NCBI GenBank assembly: GCA_965232515.1
Contig: CBDDPY010000002.1
Span: 4,288,001-4,352,000, forward strand
DNA length: 64,000 nt
Direction of reading: 5' to 3'
From: Alphaproteobacteria bacterium
GTDB lineage: Bacteria > Pseudomonadota > Alphaproteobacteria > GCA-2731375
This document shows, in pieces, positions 7,277 through 13,324 of the stretch. The first letter of the stretch is position 1, and each line of letters opens with the position of its first letter. Both the position numbers and the translations under genes were made by a program. Below the pieces are notes generated by a model. It did no database searches, was not told the origin of the DNA, and saw only the letters and a program-made list of their open reading frames with translations.

Positions 7277-8710
7277 TTGGTCGCTCGCGACCTGACGCCG
7301 TTCTTCTATCCCAAGAGCGTCGCGGTCGTCGGCGCCGGCGAACGGCCGGGCAGCTCCGGCGGCGCGGTCTGCCAGAACCTCGATATCAGCGGCTATGCCG
7401 GCGCTGTGGTGCCGGTGAACCCGAAGGGCGGCACGATCTTCGGCAACGAAGCGCGGACCAGCCTGCGCGAGTTGGAGCAACCCGCCGACCTGGCGGTGAT
7501 CGTGATCCGGCCGGATTTGATTCCAGGCGCCGTGCGCGAGGCGGCCGAGACCGGGCACAGGAACCTGCTGATCCTGCCGGGTGGATTCGCCGAGGCCGGG
7601 GCCGAGGGCGAGGCCCGCGACGCCGAGGTCCGGGCGGTCGCCGCCGAGGCCGGCGTCACCATCGCCGGGCCCAACTGCGCCGGCATCATCCACCTGACCG
7701 ACGAGAGCCGGTTCGGCGCCACGTTCCTGCGCGACATGCCGCCCGGCGGCGGCATCGCCTTCATCTCGCAGTCCGGCGCGCTGGCGGAGGAAGCCATCGC
7801 CGCGGCCAACGACCGCGCCCTCGCGCTCGGTACCGTGGTCTCGGTCGGCAACGCCATGCATCTCGGCGTCGAGGACTATCTGGAGTTCCTGGGCGAGCAG
7901 GACCGCTGCACCTGCGTTTTGCTCTATGTCGAATCCATCGAGGACCCGGCCCGGTTCCGCGACATCGCCCGCCGCGTCGCGGCGAAAAAGCCGGTGGTGA
8001 TGTTCATGGCGGGCGGCACCGGGCCCGGCGGGCCGGCCGCCCGCGCGCACACCGGCGCGGTGATCAACGACGCCGAGACCATTGCGGCCTTCGCCGCCGA
8101 CTGCTGCGCCGTGCAGGCGACGTCGCTGCGCCGGCTGCTGCTGGCAGCGAAAGCCTTCGGCGCGCATCCGCAAGGCATCGGCAAGCGGGCGCTGATCCTG
8201 TCGAACTCGGGCGGACCGGGGGTGATCTGCACCGACCGGGCGGCGCGCGAGGGCCTGGACCTGCCGCCACTGCCGCCGGCGATGGCGCAAGCCATGCACG
8301 CCGAGCTACCGCCGGAGGCGTCGGTGGCCAACCCCATCGATCTGCTGGCGGACGCGCGCGAGGACCGTTTCGGCCTGACGCTCGACCTCGCCATCAAGCA
8401 TGGGCCGAGCACGTTCGATGCCATCCTGATGATCCACGTGGTGCCGTTCATGGTCGACGCCGGCCCGGTGATCGAGCGCCTCGCCGCCGATGTCGGCAAA
8501 TCGCCGCTGGCGGTGTTCCATTCGATGATGGGCACGCTGCCGGGCAAGGCCGAATGGTTCGCGGCCATGGAAGCCGCCGGCGTGCCCATGTTCAACGACG
8601 TCGAGGAAATGGCCGAGGCCGCCGGCATGCTGGCGCAATACCCCGACCTGAAAGCGCGCGCCGCCGCGCCCCCGGAAGGCGTTCTCGGCTTGAAAGGCCG
8701 CGGCGGCTGA
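7277..8710 (+). CDS. ADP-forming acetate/acyl-CoA ligase alpha subunit (no ATP-grasp domain)
   Basis: PKSVAVVGA, PVNPK, GGFAE, GPNCAG, SQSGAL, AHTG phospho-His motif, SNSGGPG, NPIDL; TTG start. Confidence 0.85.
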   Translation: MVARDLTPFFYPKSVAVVGAGERPGSSGGAVCQNLDISGYAGAVVPVNPKGGTIFGNEARTSLRELEQPADLAVIVIRPDLIPGAVREAAETGHRNLLILPGGFAEAGAEGEARDAEVRAVAAEAGVTIAGPNCAGIIHLTDESRFGATFLRDMPPGGGIAFISQSGALAEEAIAAANDRALALGTVVSVGNAMHLGVEDYLEFLGEQDRCTCVLLYVESIEDPARFRDIARRVAAKKPVVMFMAGGTGPGGPAARAHTGAVINDAETIAAFAADCCAVQATSLRRLLLAAKAFGAHPQGIGKRALILSNSGGPGVICTDRAAREGLDLPPLPPAMAQAMHAELPPEASVANPIDLLADAREDRFGLTLDLAIKHGPSTFDAILMIHVVPFMVDAGPVIERLAADVGKSPLAVFHSMMGTLPGKAEWFAAMEAAGVPMFNDVEEMAEAAGMLAQYPDLKARAAAPPEGVLGLKGRGG

Positions 8711-8732
8711 TACGCATTGGCCGATGGCCGCG

Positions 8733-8830
8733 CTTCGAGACGCGCCGTTGGCGCTCCTCAGCGTGAGGCTGGAGCTCGATATCAGTTCCTTGCCTTACGC
8801 TGAGGAGGTCCCGAAGGGACCGTCTCGAAG
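8733..8830. repeat. REP-like palindromic element, family A
   Basis: CTTCGAGACG..CTCCTCAGCGTGAGG...CCTTACGCTGAGGAG..CGTCTCGAAG; same family at 11536 and 40420; lies between convergent genes. Confidence 0.85.
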
Positions 8831-8842
8831 CGCGCCATCGGG

Positions 8843-10084
8843 TCAGCCCTTCACGCAGACCACCTGCTTCAGCGTGTGGACCACGTCGACCAGGTCGGTC
8901 TGGGCGGCCATGACGGCGTCGATGTCCTTGTAGGCCATCGGCGTCTCGTCGATGACACCCGTGTCCTTGCGGCATTCGACGCCCTCGGTGGCGGCGATGT
9001 GGTCCGCCTCCGTGAAGCGCCGCTTGGCCTCGGCCCGCGACATGGCGCGGCCGGCCCCGTGCGAGCACGACAGGAAGGCATCCGCGTTGCCCTTGCCGCG
9101 CACGATGTAGGACCGCACCCCCATGCTGCCCGGAATGATGCCGAGCTCGCCGTCGCCGGCGCGCACGGCCCCCTTGCGGGTGACCCAGACCCGGGCGCCG
9201 AAATGTTCCTCGCGGGCGACGTAGTTGTGGTGACAGTTGACCGCCACCTCGCCCACGCGGAAGTCCGTGAACGTCTCGGCCATGACCTCGAGGATCCGGG
9301 CCATCATGCATTCGCGGTTCGCCCGCGCGAAGGCCTGGGCCCAGCCGACCGCCTTGACGTAGTCGTTGAAGCCCTCGGTGCCCTCCGGCAGGTAGGCGAG
9401 ATCGGCGTCCGGCAGCCGGATGAACCAGCGCTCCATCTCGCGCTTGGCGCGCTCGATGAAATAGCTGCCGATGCGGTTGCCGATGCCGCGCGAGCCCGAG
9501 TGCAGCATCACCCACACCCGATCCGCTTGGTCGAGGCAGACCTCGACGAAGTGGTTGCCGGTGCCGAGCGTGCCCAGGTGATGCACGCTGTTGGCCTTGG
9601 CGAGCTTCGGGTGCTTCTCGGTTAGCGCCTTGAGCCCGGTCTCGAGCGTACCGTCGCGGTAAGGCGTGTCGCGCCATGCCGAGGCCACAACATCCGGCAC
9701 ATCGGTCCAGGCGCCGGCGTCGCGGCGGCGGTCACCCTTGCCGGTACGGCCATGCGGCACCGCGGCCTCGATGCCCGCGCGCAGGTCCGACAGGCTGTCG
9801 GGCAGGGCCTGCGAGGTCAGGCTGGTCTGCACCGCCATCATGCCGCAGCCGATGTCGACGCCGACCGCGGCCGGGATGATCGCGGCCTTGAGCGGGATCA
9901 CGCTACCGACGGTGGCGCCCATGCCCCAGTGCACGTCCGGCATCGCGGCGACATGCTTGTGCACGAACGGCAGGCTGGCAACGTTGCGGAGCTGCTTCAG
10001 CGCCGCATCTTCCACCGGCACGCCCTTGGTCCAGGCCTTGATCGGCGCGCCGCCTTCGGTCTCGATGTACTCGTACCCACTCAT
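8843..10084 (-). CDS. rtcB: RtcB family RNA ligase
   Basis: AMPDVH, AVGVDIGCG, LGTLGTGNHF, LHSGSRG, NCHHNY, HGAGR, DETPMAYK all intact; SD GAGGAGAGG. Confidence 0.96.
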   Translation of the reverse strand: MSGYEYIETEGGAPIKAWTKGVPVEDAALKQLRNVASLPFVHKHVAAMPDVHWGMGATVGSVIPLKAAIIPAAVGVDIGCGMMAVQTSLTSQALPDSLSDLRAGIEAAVPHGRTGKGDRRRDAGAWTDVPDVVASAWRDTPYRDGTLETGLKALTEKHPKLAKANSVHHLGTLGTGNHFVEVCLDQADRVWVMLHSGSRGIGNRIGSYFIERAKREMERWFIRLPDADLAYLPEGTEGFNDYVKAVGWAQAFARANRECMMARILEVMAETFTDFRVGEVAVNCHHNYVAREEHFGARVWVTRKGAVRAGDGELGIIPGSMGVRSYIVRGKGNADAFLSCSHGAGRAMSRAEAKRRFTEADHIAATEGVECRKDTGVIDETPMAYKDIDAVMAAQTDLVDVVHTLKQVVCVKG

Positions 10085-10138
10085 TGTTCCTCTCCTCAGA
10101 TGCGGGTCCCAAGATTGCGCCGCCCATGTCGGGTCATC

Positions 10139-10172
10139 AAAAAACCCCTCCGGAGCGGGTCTCGGGAGGGGT
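10139..10172 (-). terminator. Intrinsic terminator inside the rtcB 5' leader
   Basis: Minus strand ACCCCTCC-CGAGACCCGCTCC-GGAGGGGT followed by a T run (6 T), ending ~55 nt before the rtcB ATG. Confidence 0.8.
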
Positions 10173-10204
10173 CGCGGTGTGCTTGGCTGTGTTGCCTTGT
10201 CGGC

Positions 10205-10318
10205 TTAAGCGATGCGCACGCCCTCCTGGTCCGTGGCGGACAGTGTCCGCCCGGAATTCTTGCTGTTGGCGGCCGGGTAAGCCGCGACCGCTATCGTTGA
10301 GGTTTCTGAACTACGCAT
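10205..10318 (-). CDS. Putative 37-aa leader peptide (uORF) of rtcB
   Basis: MRSSETSTIAVAAYPAANSKNSGRTLSATDQEGVRIA*; stop ~33 nt before the terminator hairpin; translation unproven. Confidence 0.45.
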   Translation of the reverse strand: MRSSETSTIAVAAYPAANSKNSGRTLSATDQEGVRIA

Positions 10319-10376
10319 CGTTCCGCTCGCTTCGTGCCCGAGGCCGTTGCCTCGAAGCGGCTCTCGGAGGTCGAGG

Positions 10377-10405
10377 GTGATACAGCCTTCGGTCGCGCCG
10401 GTCAA
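10377..10405 (-). promoter_or_regulatory. Putative sigma70 promoter for the rtcB leader
   Basis: Minus strand TTGACC-N17-TATCAC. Confidence 0.5.
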
Positions 10406-10433
10406 GGTTTATGCCCGCAAAGCCGCTGTTCCG

Positions 10434-10502
10434 CGTCATGCTGGCGAAGGCCAGCATCCACGGCAGACTCGGAAATGGATCCTGGCCTGCGCCAGCATGA
10501 CG
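10434..10502. repeat. Alphaproteobacterial palindromic repeat, family B (CGTCAT...ATCCA / TGGAT...ATGACG)
   Basis: CGTCATGCTGGCGAAGGCCAGCATCCA-spacer-TGGATCCTGGCCTGCGCCAGCATGACG. Confidence 0.85.
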
Positions 10503-10521
10503 GCAGACGTGGAAGCTGCCG

Positions 10522-11481
10522 CTACTCGAAACTGAAGCCCATGGTGCGGCAGTGGTAGTAGAGGCCGCCGTCCTGGACGATGAGGCAGAGCATGCGCTCG
10601 GCGCCATCGTTGTGGTGCGAGTGCATTTCGGCCGGCGGCGTCACCATGACGGCGTTCTCGGCCCAGTCGATGCGCTGGCCGTCGATCACCGAATAGCAGT
10701 CGCGGCCCTGCACCGAGAGGGTGACGGCCACTGAGTTATGCCGGTGCGGCGTCTGCGCGTCGCCGGACGGCAGCGAGTTCATGGCGAGCGTCAACGTCGG
10801 CGTGATGTTGCGGACATCGGCCAACTTGTCGCTCGAAAAAATCAGCGCGTAGCCCGGCCGCGGCACGACATGCTCGAGCTCGGCATAGACGCGGTCGAAC
10901 TGCTGCGCGATCTCGGCCGCGGGATAGTGCACGGCCTGGACCAGCGCCTCGTCGGCCTTGGGCGGCTGAAAACGCTCGAAGGCGAGCTCGGGCTCGTTGG
11001 TGATCAGCCAGAGAATGCTGTCGGTATCGCCCGCGGTATGCACGCTTTCGTGTCCGCCCGGCAGTGAGAAGACGTCGCCTTCCGCCCAGTCGATGCGCTC
11101 AGCCCCATTCTCGGTATGGCCGGCGCCGGCGCAAACGTAATAGAGCTCGCCGCTAGCGATCAGGTTCGTCGACAGCGTCTCGCCCGCGCGGATGCGGACG
11201 TAGCGCGTCAGGATCAGCGGCGTCGTCGCCGGCGCGTCGAGGCCCATGGCGGCGCTGAGGTCGAGATCGATCAGGCCGGTCGGCGTATCGGCGGCGAAGG
11301 CCCGATCGCGCTCGGCCAGGAACTGGTGCTTCGGCACCGGCGGCTTCTTGATGTTGAAGGCGTTGCCGGAATGGAAGAACCGCGCCCGCCGCTGCTGCGG
11401 CGTCGCCGCGCCGTCGGCCGGCACGCCGTCGAAGCTATCCGTCCCGGTCTCGACCGCCGCCGTTTTCGCGCTCGCCATCAC
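10522..11481 (-). CDS. Bicupin dioxygenase-like protein (distant gentisate 1,2-dioxygenase relative)
   Basis: Two cupin repeats; C-terminal TPHRHNS...TPPAEMHSHHN...IVQDGG. Confidence 0.75.
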   Translation of the reverse strand: MMASAKTAAVETGTDSFDGVPADGAATPQQRRARFFHSGNAFNIKKPPVPKHQFLAERDRAFAADTPTGLIDLDLSAAMGLDAPATTPLILTRYVRIRAGETLSTNLIASGELYYVCAGAGHTENGAERIDWAEGDVFSLPGGHESVHTAGDTDSILWLITNEPELAFERFQPPKADEALVQAVHYPAAEIAQQFDRVYAELEHVVPRPGYALIFSSDKLADVRNITPTLTLAMNSLPSGDAQTPHRHNSVAVTLSVQGRDCYSVIDGQRIDWAENAVMVTPPAEMHSHHNDGAERMLCLIVQDGGLYYHCRTMGFSFE

Positions 11482-11535
11482 GTCCTCCCCACGCCGTTGC
11501 CTGCGACGATCTTACACGAAAACCAAGTCGGCCGG

Positions 11536-11633
11536 CTTCGAGACGCCGGCTACGCCGGCTCCTCAGCCTGAGGTGGAGGAGATTGAAAACGAGAATGCCT
11601 CAGCCTGAGGAGGCCCGAAGGGCCGTCTCGAAG
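11536..11633. repeat. REP-like palindromic element, family A
   Basis: CTTCGAGACGCCGGCTACGCCGGCTCCTCAGCCTGAGG...CCTCAGCCTGAGGAGGCCCGAAGGGCCGTCTCGAAG. Confidence 0.85.
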
Positions 11634-11641
11634 GCGGCAGG

Positions 11642-12049
11642 TCAGGACTTGGGCGGCAGGACGAGTTGGGTTTGCGTGACGAGCGCGGCGAGCTTGCCGG
11701 CTTCGGTGGTGATGCGGGTCTGCCAGACCATGGTGGTGCGGCCGCGATGCACGGGCGTGGTCTCGGCCGTGAGCGTGGTGCCGACGGGCGCGGCGGCCAC
11801 AAAGTTGGTCTTGCTTTCGATGGTCGTGGTGCCGGCGCCCTGGGGCAGGTTCAGGAACGTGGCGACGCCGCCGAGCGTATCGGCGAACGCCATCAGCGCG
11901 CCGCCATGCGCGACGGCCGGACGAGTGCAGAGATCGTCGCGGACCGGCAGTTCGGCAACGATGCGCTCGGGCGTCGCTTCCGTCAGACGAATACCCATCA
12001 GCTTGCCGAACGGCAGCATGTTCTCGTTGAGCATGTCGAGCTGGTCCAT
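11642..12049 (-). CDS. PaaI family thioesterase
   Basis: AHGGALMAFADTLGG, TTIESKTNF, HRGRTTMVWQT. Confidence 0.9.
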   Translation of the reverse strand: MDQLDMLNENMLPFGKLMGIRLTEATPERIVAELPVRDDLCTRPAVAHGGALMAFADTLGGVATFLNLPQGAGTTTIESKTNFVAAAPVGTTLTAETTPVHRGRTTMVWQTRITTEAGKLAALVTQTQLVLPPKS

Positions 12050-12287
12050 GTCATGTCCTCCGATCCGACGCGTTGGCTTCGCGCCATACTGACAGCGAGC
12101 ATCGTCGGTTCAATTACGTCCGAGGTAGGCGCGGACGGCAAGACAGCATTCACGGCAACTTGCGATGGGCGCCGGACTGCGCGAGCATTGATCCCGGCGA
12201 AATCGCCAGCTCGGCGAATCCCTTAGAGAACCGAATGACAAATGGCCGACGCACCGATGGCCGAAATGGAAGGGAGGTCCAGACATT

Positions 12288-13265
12288 ATGCCCATCAAAC
12301 TGACCCGGCGGGGCTTTAGCGGCGGAATGGCAGCGACAGTGGCGGCGGCGGGGCTGCCACGGCAAGCGGACGCCGCGGTGACGTTCAAATATGCCAACGC
12401 CTCGAACGAGCAGAACCTGAGCAATCAGTTCGCCGCCATGTTCCTGAAGGAGGTGGAGAAGCGCACGAACGGCGAGGTCAAGACGCAAATCCTCTACAAC
12501 ATGGGCGGCGAGAAATCGATCCTCGAAGGCGTGTCGCTGGGCACGCTCGACATGGCCGTGGTCGGTTATTCGGGCCTGCGCGAGTTCGACGTCTTCTACA
12601 CGCCCTATCTGCTGCGCGACATCCCGCACGGCGTCGAGGTGATGAAGGGGCCGATCGGCGAGCGTGCGGCGAAGGCGATGAAGGACCGCTACGATGTGCG
12701 CCTCGTCGGCGTCGGTTCGACGGGGCCATTCCTGCTCGGCATCAAGGAGCCGGCCGGGTCCTGGGCCGACCTGAAGGACCGCAAGATCCGCGTGCCGCAG
12801 TTCGAAGCCTATCTGGAAGCCATCGCGGCGCTGGACGCGCGGCCGACGCCGATCCCGTTCAACGAGGTCTATCTGGCCCTGCAGCAGGGGGTCGTCGAGG
12901 GGTTGGTGACGATCCTCAACGTCATGCTGGCGAACAAGTTCGTCGAGGTCTGCAAATACGTTGTCGCCAACGATTTCGGCGTCGGCCTGGACAAGTTCGT
13001 GGTCTCGGAGCGGAGCTGGAGCCGCATGACGCCGGCGCAGCAGCAGATCTTCCAGGATACCTATGACGAGATGATGCCGACCCACTTCGTCCAGCGGGCG
13101 ATCGACCAGGCCGCGCTGGACTTCAAGAAGTGGGAAGAGCTGAACGGCGCCGGCACCGTGCTGCGTCTCGACGCGGAACAGCTCCAGCGCACCATGGAGC
13201 CGGTCGGCCGCAAGCTGGCCGACGACATCTACGGGCCCGGCGCCTACGACCTGTTCCAGGCCTGA
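12288..13265 (+). CDS. dctP: TRAP transporter substrate-binding protein
   Basis: Tat-like LTRRGF signal, DLKDRKIRVP, PTPIPFNEVYLALQQGVVEG. Confidence 0.9.
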   Translation: MPIKLTRRGFSGGMAATVAAAGLPRQADAAVTFKYANASNEQNLSNQFAAMFLKEVEKRTNGEVKTQILYNMGGEKSILEGVSLGTLDMAVVGYSGLREFDVFYTPYLLRDIPHGVEVMKGPIGERAAKAMKDRYDVRLVGVGSTGPFLLGIKEPAGSWADLKDRKIRVPQFEAYLEAIAALDARPTPIPFNEVYLALQQGVVEGLVTILNVMLANKFVEVCKYVVANDFGVGLDKFVVSERSWSRMTPAQQQIFQDTYDEMMPTHFVQRAIDQAALDFKKWEELNGAGTVLRLDAEQLQRTMEPVGRKLADDIYGPGAYDLFQA

Positions 13266-13290: not shown

Positions 13291-13324
13291 AGCCCCGCCC
13301 GCCAAGACCTGGCCGGGCGGGGCT
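13291..13324 (+). terminator. GC-rich hairpin after dctP (mRNA stabiliser or weak terminator)
   Basis: AGCCCCGCCC...GGGCGGGGCT 10-bp stem, no U-tract. Confidence 0.5.

Follow-up and report, generated by a model that had tools for sequence, protein, structure and literature searches.

A probable leader-peptide attenuator in front of the RNA ligase gene rtcB in Alphaproteobacteria

How do bacteria that lack the regulator RtcR decide when to make the RNA ligase RtcB? The question is raised by an rtcB gene in a 64 kb stretch of an alphaproteobacterial genome (GenBank assembly GCA_965232515.1, contig CBDDPY010000002.1), which we call the window. To our knowledge, the decision to switch on RNA repair is understood solely for the enterobacterial RtcR/sigma54 system, and most of the rtcB genes that we know of are without RtcR. 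The rtcBA genes of Escherichia coli and Salmonella specify the same enzyme, and the cue, impaired translation and damaged tRNA, is expected to be alike in the two settings. At positions 10085-10405 of the window, on the same (minus) strand as rtcB and directly in front of it, there is a leader that is, judging from its sequence, probably a leader-peptide transcription attenuator, such that rtcB would be made when ribosomes fail to finish a short upstream open reading frame (uORF). Such an attenuator would replace the RtcR/sigma54 control of enterobacteria, with RNA and ribosome as the sensor rather than a CARF-domain protein, and would provide a second, directly testable answer to how RNA repair is induced: a ribosome on a test track of 30-40 codons reports trouble and thereby releases transcription of rtcB.

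The gene itself (8843-10084, minus strand; all coordinates are numbered within the window) encodes a 413 aa RNA 3'-phosphate/5'-OH ligase with a full-length match to Pfam PF01139 (E 7.3e-134). A sequence-only reading of the window had noted that no rtcR lies within it, and this extends to the whole genome: the window's genome (96% complete) and four further leader-bearing genomes (G001 and G061-G063) gave no match to RtcR (PF06956) or RtcA (PF01137), in a search that detected the E. coli positive control. There is also no sigma54-like site (TGGCAY-N5-YTGCW) in 10085-10520.

The uORF comprises 37 codons and a TAA stop (MRSSETSTIAVAAYPAANSKNSGRTLSATDQEGVRIA; 10205-10318, with ATG at 10318-10316 and TAA at 10207-10205), and is preceded by a putative sigma70-type promoter at 10377-10405 (TTGACC 10405-10400, a 17-nucleotide (nt) spacer, and TATCAC 10382-10377). 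Near its end is region 2, the candidate antiterminator strand (10210-10226), consisting of GGAGGG (10226-10221) and GCGTGCGCATCG and lying 13 nt 5' of the stop codon; its GGAGGG is complementary to CCCTCC (10170-10165) in the 5' arm of an intrinsic terminator, and the duplex of region 2 with that arm has a predicted energy of -13.7 kcal/mol over 6 contiguous bp. The terminator (regions 3 and 4; 10139-10172) has the form ACCCCTCCCGAG-loop-CTCCGGAGGGGT followed by T6, folds with -20.9 kcal/mol, and ends 54 nt before the rtcB ATG at 10084. Region 1 is the start of the uORF (CGATGCGTAGT...CCTC; 10299-10320), which pairs with region 2 in the ribosome-free minimum free energy (MFE) fold of both the full and the truncated leader; at its heart is a 9 bp stem, with one G-U pair, between CGATGCGTA (10320-10312) and TGCGCATCG (10218-10210), and this stem encloses two hairpins within the uORF (10269-10291 and 10235-10251). 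The 291 nt leader as a whole folds better than 200 of 200 dinucleotide shuffles (z -3.0). Promoter, uORF, enclosing stem and hairpins, complementary boxes and a terminator about 55 nt from rtcB had all been proposed in the sequence-only reading, as had the structured character of the leader, and each is present where it had been placed.

From these parts we infer where transcription starts and ends, that the uORF is translated, and how the leader responds to stalling. Transcription would start a few bases past TATCAC, and a ribosome would translate the 37-codon uORF. Should it keep pace with RNA polymerase as far as the last codons, it would cover GGAGGG in region 2, so that the CCCCTCC arm (region 3) would pair with GGAGGGG (region 4) and the T6 terminator would stop transcription 54 nt before rtcB. 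A ribosome held up early in the uORF would instead mask region 1 and leave region 2 free to pair with region 3; no terminator would form, and rtcB would be transcribed. With no ribosome at all, region 1 would hold region 2 and transcription would terminate. Folding with a ribosome mask, in which 28 nt around each P-site codon are removed from pairing in a thermodynamic model, is consistent with this scheme. Without a ribosome the window leader is predicted to form the terminator, region 2 being held by the uORF start and CCUC; with a ribosome at codons 1-5, 9-10, 17-20 or 24 it is predicted to form the antiterminator; and with a ribosome at codons 25-38 the terminator returns. Two other leaders of the family described below (L024 and L030, in our numbering of rtcB loci) give the same on/off pattern, and the logic first suggested from the sequence, in which a finished uORF leads to termination and a stall to read-through, is reproduced for the window by this model.

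Is this arrangement peculiar to the window? We read the sequence upstream of rtcB at 80 loci fetched from named genome contigs, and the same order of parts recurs in many alphaproteobacterial rtcB loci, including those of Caulobacter, Brevundimonas, Hyphomonadaceae, metagenome-assembled genomes of Rhodospirillales and others, with little sequence in common with the window. The 5' half of the shared layout has a -10 box, in many cases followed by a CCUCC-like box, then a Shine-Dalgarno (SD) sequence rich in purines and an ATG or GTG that opens a frame of about 30 codons, with a hairpin midway along it; the 3' half comprises GCGCGYG and GGAGG near the end of the ORF, the stop codon, about 33 nt, a terminator AACCCCTCC-loop-GGAGGGGTT with a T-rich tail, and 55-65 nt leading to rtcB. 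The genes upstream of the leader vary between loci. A comparison of rtcB upstream regions from genomes without rtcR, which had been named as a check of the attenuator, brings out a common uORF, a GGAGG box before its stop and a CCCCTCC/GGAGGGG terminator. In unselected samples, limited to loci with enough upstream sequence, the terminator pattern is found at 21 of 77 loci from genome contigs and 6 of 70 from metagenomes.

The linkage of the leader to rtcB was examined with a covariance model (R1) built from 16 core leaders, with the window left out. Its structure was assigned by hand, since two MAFFT alignments (A2 and A3) were structurally inconsistent and RNAalifold recovered the terminator only in part. 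R1 matches occur in 24 of 151 genomes of one sampled order, with one copy per genome, and all 23 matches of at least 45 bits are immediately 5' of rtcB and oriented like it; three weaker matches of 39-42 bits in L120, L121 and L123 are not adjacent to rtcB. RtcB is encoded by 53 of the 151 genomes, and we fetched the upstream regions from 29 of the 30 RtcB genomes that have no rtcB-adjacent R1 match. Twenty-four of these 29 loci have a CCCTCC...GGAGGG-T terminator, 22 of the 24 with an SD sequence and an ATG-initiated uORF of 28-52 codons identified by rule, and several represent new sequence types. Two of the remaining five have a sigma54-like promoter, two have Y-RNA-like genes, and one has none of these. 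Altogether, a terminator leader of this architecture precedes rtcB at 47 of the 52 loci examined in the sampled order; the leader is thus widespread in one alphaproteobacterial order, in many sequence-diverse forms.

The window leader is a member of this family by architecture and not by detectable sequence, and is a diverged form. Set against the core type, it has an additional hairpin on the 5' side, its uORF is longer, at 37 codons, and its GCGYGCG block follows GGAGGG rather than preceding it. R1 matches only its terminator (model positions 100-126; 19.2 bits, E 0.007), this being the best match in the 64 kb, whereas family members score 45-125 bits and the window yields no full-length match; likewise, blastn and nhmmer searches with the window sequence and that of its relative G001 against 83 loci gave weak terminator matches only. 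No catalogued family matches the leader: a search of window positions 8000-13000 against Rfam 15 returned nothing for it (the best E value, 0.25, falls on a neighbouring palindrome), a search of 19 loci at the gathering threshold returned only tRNA and tmRNA, and four further leader types gave no match at E <=0.01.

The closest comparison is provided by G001, a member of the same genus, which alone among 61 related genomes gave a full-length BLAST match to the window leader, spanning the whole of it at 83% identity. The similarity begins abruptly at about -45 relative to the proposed promoter, upstream of which the sequences are wholly diverged, and the block from -45 to -10 is almost invariant. 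Also invariant are the block around the uORF start, TTCAGAAACCTCA, GGAGGGCG.GCGCATCGCTTAA, GGAGGG, and the whole terminator together with its loop (100%). The frame and length of the uORF are kept with no insertion or deletion. The 5' hairpin specific to the window type (10338-10367; CCGAGAGCCG/loop/CGGCCTCGG in the MFE fold) retains its pairing through changes in both arms, CCGAG/CTCGG becoming CCGGG/CCCGG. In hairpin A (10269-10291, with a GCGGCT/GGCCGC core in the MFE fold) a C-G pair has become U-A and a G-C pair G-U, and in hairpin B (10231-10254, inner part 10251-10235; GGCGGA CACTG TCCGCC, extended by CCG/CGG), which occupies the position of the mid-uORF hairpin of the family, only loop letters differ. 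Support for the pairing of region 1 is partial, since the outermost A-U pair of the 9 bp stem is lost in G001 (C.C). The part that varies most among the window, G001 and related strains is the spacer before rtcB (10085-10138), which contains the rtcB ribosome-binding site GAGGAGAGGA at 10097-10088. An RtcB-anchored scan of metagenome contigs revealed no further leader of the window type; the closest metagenomic RtcB, at 75% identity (L124), has a different upstream region (330 nt upstream of rtcB), with a duplicated CYTGAGGGCCAAC box and no CCCTCC terminator.

Public RNA data from four RNA-library runs of related strains were available as contigs covering 9816-10168 and 10298-10560 only. Those in 9816-10168 span the 5' part of rtcB, the spacer, the T-tract and the terminator, and those in 10298-10560 span the early uORF, the promoter, a palindrome and the end of a cupin-domain gene. 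They differ from the window in the spacer, in the loop of the 5' hairpin (10350) and in the promoter spacer, and their terminator is unchanged. One contig (9997-10168) has one end within rtcB and the other in the terminator, crossing the T-tract, as would be expected of read-through.

These observations bear on whether the main product of the stretch from promoter to terminator might be a trans-acting small RNA of about 230 nt, or a trans-acting small protein, with rtcB expressed solely by leaky read-through or from another start. The unit is indeed complete, with a promoter, a structured RNA and a strong terminator, and the spacer before rtcB is less well conserved between the window and G001 than are the terminator and many blocks of the leader. 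Released attenuator RNAs can moreover act in trans in Alphaproteobacteria, rnTrpL of Sinorhizobium being an example in the portions of the literature available to us. Yet the unit occurs once per genome, with all 23 strong matches directly upstream of rtcB in the same orientation; the consensus scan found no promoter-like site in the 54 nt between terminator and rtcB; and the 9997-10168 contig of a related strain fits read-through. A role in trans would in any case add to a role in cis and not replace it, so that release of a small RNA by the terminator, an option in the original reading, could hold in addition to attenuation. As the chief function of the unit we think it distinctly improbable.

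If the leader is an attenuator then its frame should be translated, and the statistics of 49 family uORFs, together with a separate set of 22 additional leaders, bear on this. All 49 begin with ATG (31) or GTG (18), and all of the additional 22 with ATG; an SD-like purine run is present at -15 to -4 in 45 of the 49. Stop codons are TAG in 23, TGA in 22 and TAA in four, and interchange at the same aligned columns. The uORFs are 21-38 codons long (median 31) and end 27-40 nt (median 33) before the terminator, two measures that hold even where the peptide sequences of subfamilies have next to nothing in common. The GC content at codon positions 1, 2 and 3 is 0.62, 0.55 and 0.79 in the 49 uORFs, compared with 0.51, 0.55 and 0.55 in the adjacent spacer; codons 2-13 give 0.48, 0.53 and 0.77, and the window uORF 0.56, 0.64 and 0.72. 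The peptide is another matter. We found no purifying selection on it, and the window and G001 uORFs differ by approximately 12 non-synonymous and 2 synonymous changes (from an alignment read by eye). Conservation of the uORF, which had been proposed as a check, therefore holds for start codon, stop codon and length and fails for the peptide; our reading of the sequences is that translation of the frame matters and the peptide product does not, as is usual for leaders that sense stalling.

What, then, would the ribosome report? In the trpL, hisL and leuL leaders, a promoter, an SD sequence and a short ORF are followed by alternative 1:2, 2:3 and 3:4 pairings and an intrinsic terminator, and a ribosome that has arrived at the stop codon sits over region 2. 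The window leader shares this layout, and might accordingly be thought to sense the charging of one particular tRNA. Specific codons (Gln3 and Phe4) are also of importance in the leader of Pseudomonas armZ, an RtcB-like ligase gene, in a cca mutant, according to the part of that study available to us (PMC13041342). However, neither the window uORF nor any subfamily shows a run of a single amino acid or a position at which one is conserved; the peptide is unconserved; and the gene controlled is that of an RNA-repair enzyme rather than a biosynthetic operon. Amino-acid-specific attenuation therefore seems to us very improbable. The window leader departs from the classical ones also in that region 1 is well defined in the window type only. 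In view of the absence of a regulatory codon run, we group the family with general stall sensors, and as the peptide is unconserved the cue is likely to be slow or blocked translation in general, whether from damaged tRNA or rRNA or from ribosome inhibitors.

An attenuator of this kind would also need the end of the uORF to compete for the terminator arm. All 49 uORFs contain a GGAGG-like box 2-14 nt 5' of the stop codon, within the stretch that a terminating ribosome covers. The frame in which this box is read differs between subfamilies (GAG-G.. or CGG-AGG), so that it is conserved as RNA. The last 30 nt of the uORF pair with the 5' arm of the terminator with a mean predicted energy of -16.6 kcal/mol, compared with -5.0 for the first 30 nt, and at least 6 contiguous base pairs with the arm are available to the uORF end in 36 of 49 leaders and to the uORF start in none. 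In L020 the parts have changed together, the terminator arm reading CCCCTTCC, the box at the end of the uORF GGAAGGGG and a downstream box again GGAAGGGG. Across 45 aligned rows the core of the terminator, AACCCCTCC/GGAGGGGTT, is unchanged in 42-45, and two basal pairs switch between GC and AU; an invariant stem of this kind fits an arm that needs more than one pairing partner. The mid-uORF hairpin of the core family covaries, pair 17-31 being AU in 20 leaders, CG in ten, UA in four and GC in two. The covariation expected of the leader is seen in this hairpin, at the base of the terminator and in the joint change of L020, and is otherwise slight in the antiterminator, both sides of which are almost invariant; a list of the bases flanking GGAGG and CCTCC, read by eye, revealed no consistent pattern.

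Several observations weigh against an attenuator and should be set beside these. The duplex of uORF end and terminator arm outdoes shuffles of the same segment at the 0.05 level in just 6 of 49 leaders (the fraction for the window is 0.115), a control that is not discriminating since the segment is G-rich; and, because both sides of the antiterminator are so nearly invariant, there is little covariation in it beyond L020. In the ribosome-mask model three leaders (L028, L092 and L020) form the antiterminator already without a ribosome. The GC excess at third codon positions is not seen in the 22 additional leaders (0.65, 0.50 and 0.61, against 0.62, 0.54 and 0.62 in the spacer), third positions are no more variable than first and second ones, and along the length of the uORF the +1 frame too is open in 18 of the 49 leaders and the +2 frame in 33. 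A family-wide region 1, in the form of the 5' CCUCC box, was considered and rejected: the box was seen in 38 of 66 leaders and does not outperform control windows, its pairing with region 2 (-18.8 kcal/mol) resembling theirs (-18.1 and -19.4). For the window itself, the copy is diverged and the 16-leader model recognizes no more than its terminator; the SD sequence of its uORF is weak (GGA, within GAGCGGA at 10322-10328, 3-9 nt 5' of the ATG and identical in G001); and its particular pairings rest on two sequences, as there is only one close relative. A consensus scan of 8500-11500 reported no promoters, since TATCAC breaks the rule of a T at position 6, and found one terminator-like site where 1.4 are expected from shuffles, so that the motifs of this single sequence are not significant on their own. 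A loose promoter pattern is likewise fitted by just 13 of 71 leaders, although TTGACA-N17-TATCAC or TATATT stands at the equivalent place in other subfamilies (L206, L208 and L219). Finally, the RNA-library contigs reveal neither the start, the end nor the strand of a transcript, and since the contig 10298-10560 crosses the promoter, transcription from upstream or carry-over of DNA is possible.

Some of these points would be explained if the same terminator were governed by a structured RNA switch that is independent of translation and binds a small molecule, a protein or another RNA, for instance a fragment of damaged tRNA, the frame being a by-product of GC-rich sequence. The unconserved peptide, the third positions that are no more variable than the others, the open +2 frame in 33 of 49 leaders, the missing third-position signal in the second set and the z score of the fold are all as such a switch would have them, and the mid-uORF hairpin, GCGCGYG and GGAGG are features at the RNA level that are read in different frames. 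A by-product would not, however, be expected to begin with ATG or GTG behind a purine-rich box throughout both sets (49 of 49 and 22 of 22), to exchange TAG, TGA and TAA at the same aligned place, or to keep its length and its distance from the terminator across nearly unrelated sequences; the third-position signal of the first 49 leaders and the lack of any Rfam family match argue in the same direction. We therefore regard a translation-independent switch as unlikely and favour attenuation by a translated uORF.

An attenuator that senses stalled ribosomes upstream of an RtcB-family gene is not without precedent, the leader of Pseudomonas armZ being the closest known case; although the comparative tests support the interpretation, the sequence-only reading had in this respect taken it to be newer than it is. 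In the parts of the two reports available to us, ArmZ of Pseudomonas aeruginosa is an RtcB-like RNA ligase under the control of the PA5471.1 leader peptide by transcription attenuation with stalled ribosomes (PMC12057347), and complete translation of PA5471.1 leads to a 3:4 terminator while stalling leads to read-through, also in a mutant of tRNA-CCA repair (PMC13041342). The PA5471.1-armZ (PA5471)-PA5470 locus and the window have in common a short leader ORF upstream of an RtcB-family gene, and both would work without RtcR. Remodelling of the RNA on stalling is described for armZ, in those same parts, with ribosome-targeting antibiotics and in suhB or cca mutants, and for the window leader it is proposed only. 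Read-through is also reported to rise when codon 3 of PA5471.1 is changed to a stop (Q3-amber). There are also differences: the antiterminator of the window is an SD-like GGAGG box within the last uORF codons, and the window gene is a stand-alone canonical rtcB whereas armZ is an anti-repressor of an efflux regulator. Nor does a prfH-like release-factor gene follow rtcB, as PA5470 does in Pseudomonas; its place is taken by a convergent gene. The Pseudomonas leader is reportedly far shorter than the 37 codons of the window uORF or the approximately 30 of the family. We propose, by analogy, that the window leader works like that of armZ, the two being compared by description and not by sequence.

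The whiB7 leader, vmlR and topAI-yjhQ are further examples, as far as the available portions of the sources describe them, of uORFs that sense general translation stress upstream of a stress-response gene; they involve other genes, lineages and modes of termination, some of them Rho-dependent, and are likewise compared by description only. The full texts searched contain no leader, uORF or attenuator of a bacterial rtcB other than that of armZ, with an unnamed listing in their supplements possible, and one of them mentions rtcB solely as a radiation-induced gene (PMC4007540). The rtcB attenuator family is therefore uncatalogued in Rfam or in the literature searched, yet anticipated by the armZ leader, which would then be no oddity itself but an instance of a more general association of RtcB-family genes with leaders that sense stalling. 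The leader may also serve as a simple reporter of translation damage in these bacteria.

Could the switch read the very lesions that RtcB repairs? Copies of SD-like and anti-SD-like sequence recur in the leaders, with GGAGG in the last uORF codons, in the 3' arm of the terminator and again downstream, and the invariant CCCCUCC arm resembles the 3' end of 16S rRNA. Occupancy of the boxes by the anti-SD tail, or stalls at the codons of tRNAs cut by anticodon nucleases, would then close a loop of damage and repair made of RNA and ribosome; we offer this as a doubtful extension of the attenuator, with the odds well against it. In Caulobacter-type leaders (for example L024, L030 and L023) a third box, GGAGGGG, lies downstream of the terminator and 30-50 nt upstream of rtcB. 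It is an exact complement of 10-12 nt of the terminator 5' arm, with which it covaries (CCTGGC/GCCAGG in five leaders and CCCGGC/GCCGGG in nine), and the ribosome-binding region of rtcB in these leaders, GGAGAACCCC, is complementary to the 3' arm and tail of the terminator. As part of the lesion-reading proposal, this extra box would lock the read-through state or gate translation of rtcB. The window has at most 4-7 complementary bases at the equivalent place.

The attenuator is one of several kinds of control found in front of rtcB. Sigma54-type promoters (TTGGCAC-N5-TTGC) are present upstream of rtcB in L015, where the promoter is about 50 nt upstream and accompanied by a divergent gene, and in L217 and L222. 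In L016 (2748-2996), L205 (215-581) and L211 (221-353) the place next to rtcB on its upstream side is taken by Y-RNA-like genes that match YrlA (Rfam RF02553) at 70.6-77.6 bits, some of them arranged in tandem. Both L015 and L016 are from the window's own family, in which rtcB is patchy, being present in 4 of 33 genomes with the window's own included. Since L015, with its sigma54-type promoter, shares this family, the regulators of rtcB differ within it, and since sigma54 promoters and YrlA precede rtcB elsewhere too, upstream control appears to have been exchanged repeatedly; judged by its upstream sequences, a single bacterial family can have a sigma54 promoter, a Y-RNA or an attenuator in front of this same gene. 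The Rsr/Y-RNA arrangement of related bacteria resembles the window in that a structured RNA immediately precedes rtcB. In the window leader, however, neither a match to YrlA nor a tRNA-like domain was found, and it carries a uORF and a terminator instead.

A number of other features were noted in the leader-bearing loci. In Hyphomonadaceae-type loci a conserved ORF of approximately 76-92 aa, with its own SD sequence and no Pfam family, is located between terminator and rtcB (L046, 2210-2488, and the same place in L110, L116, L117 and L147). The same spacer contains short tandem repeats in L065 (CTGACTA/CTCACTA units) and in L111 and L112 (CACCTGACA-like units). The rtcB gene of L108 (genome G214), behind an intact leader, seems to be interrupted, with tblastn recovering residues 1-122 and 184-413 only and the Pfam match starting at 173. 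Transfer RNA genes are found near rtcB, downstream in L092, L046, L025 and L036 and upstream in L040, and a tmRNA gene lies upstream of rtcB in L030 (158-521), either of which may be coincidence.

Around the leader in the window, the gene 3' of rtcB is a convergent gene of the CoA-ligase type (7277-8710, plus strand), and rtcB is therefore monocistronic; a cupin-domain gene ends at 10522 on the upstream side. Between the cupin gene and the rtcB promoter, outside the leader, is a 69 nt GC-rich palindrome (10434-10502). A further GC-rich hairpin, AGCCCCGCCCG...CGGGCGGGGCT, at 13291-13324 gives a weak match to the terminator part of R1 (14.1 bits, E 0.12). The rtcB leader itself is single-copy in the genome, and the palindrome at 10434-10502 is a dispersed repeat resembling repetitive extragenic palindromic (REP) elements, with about 60 matches genome-wide on both strands.

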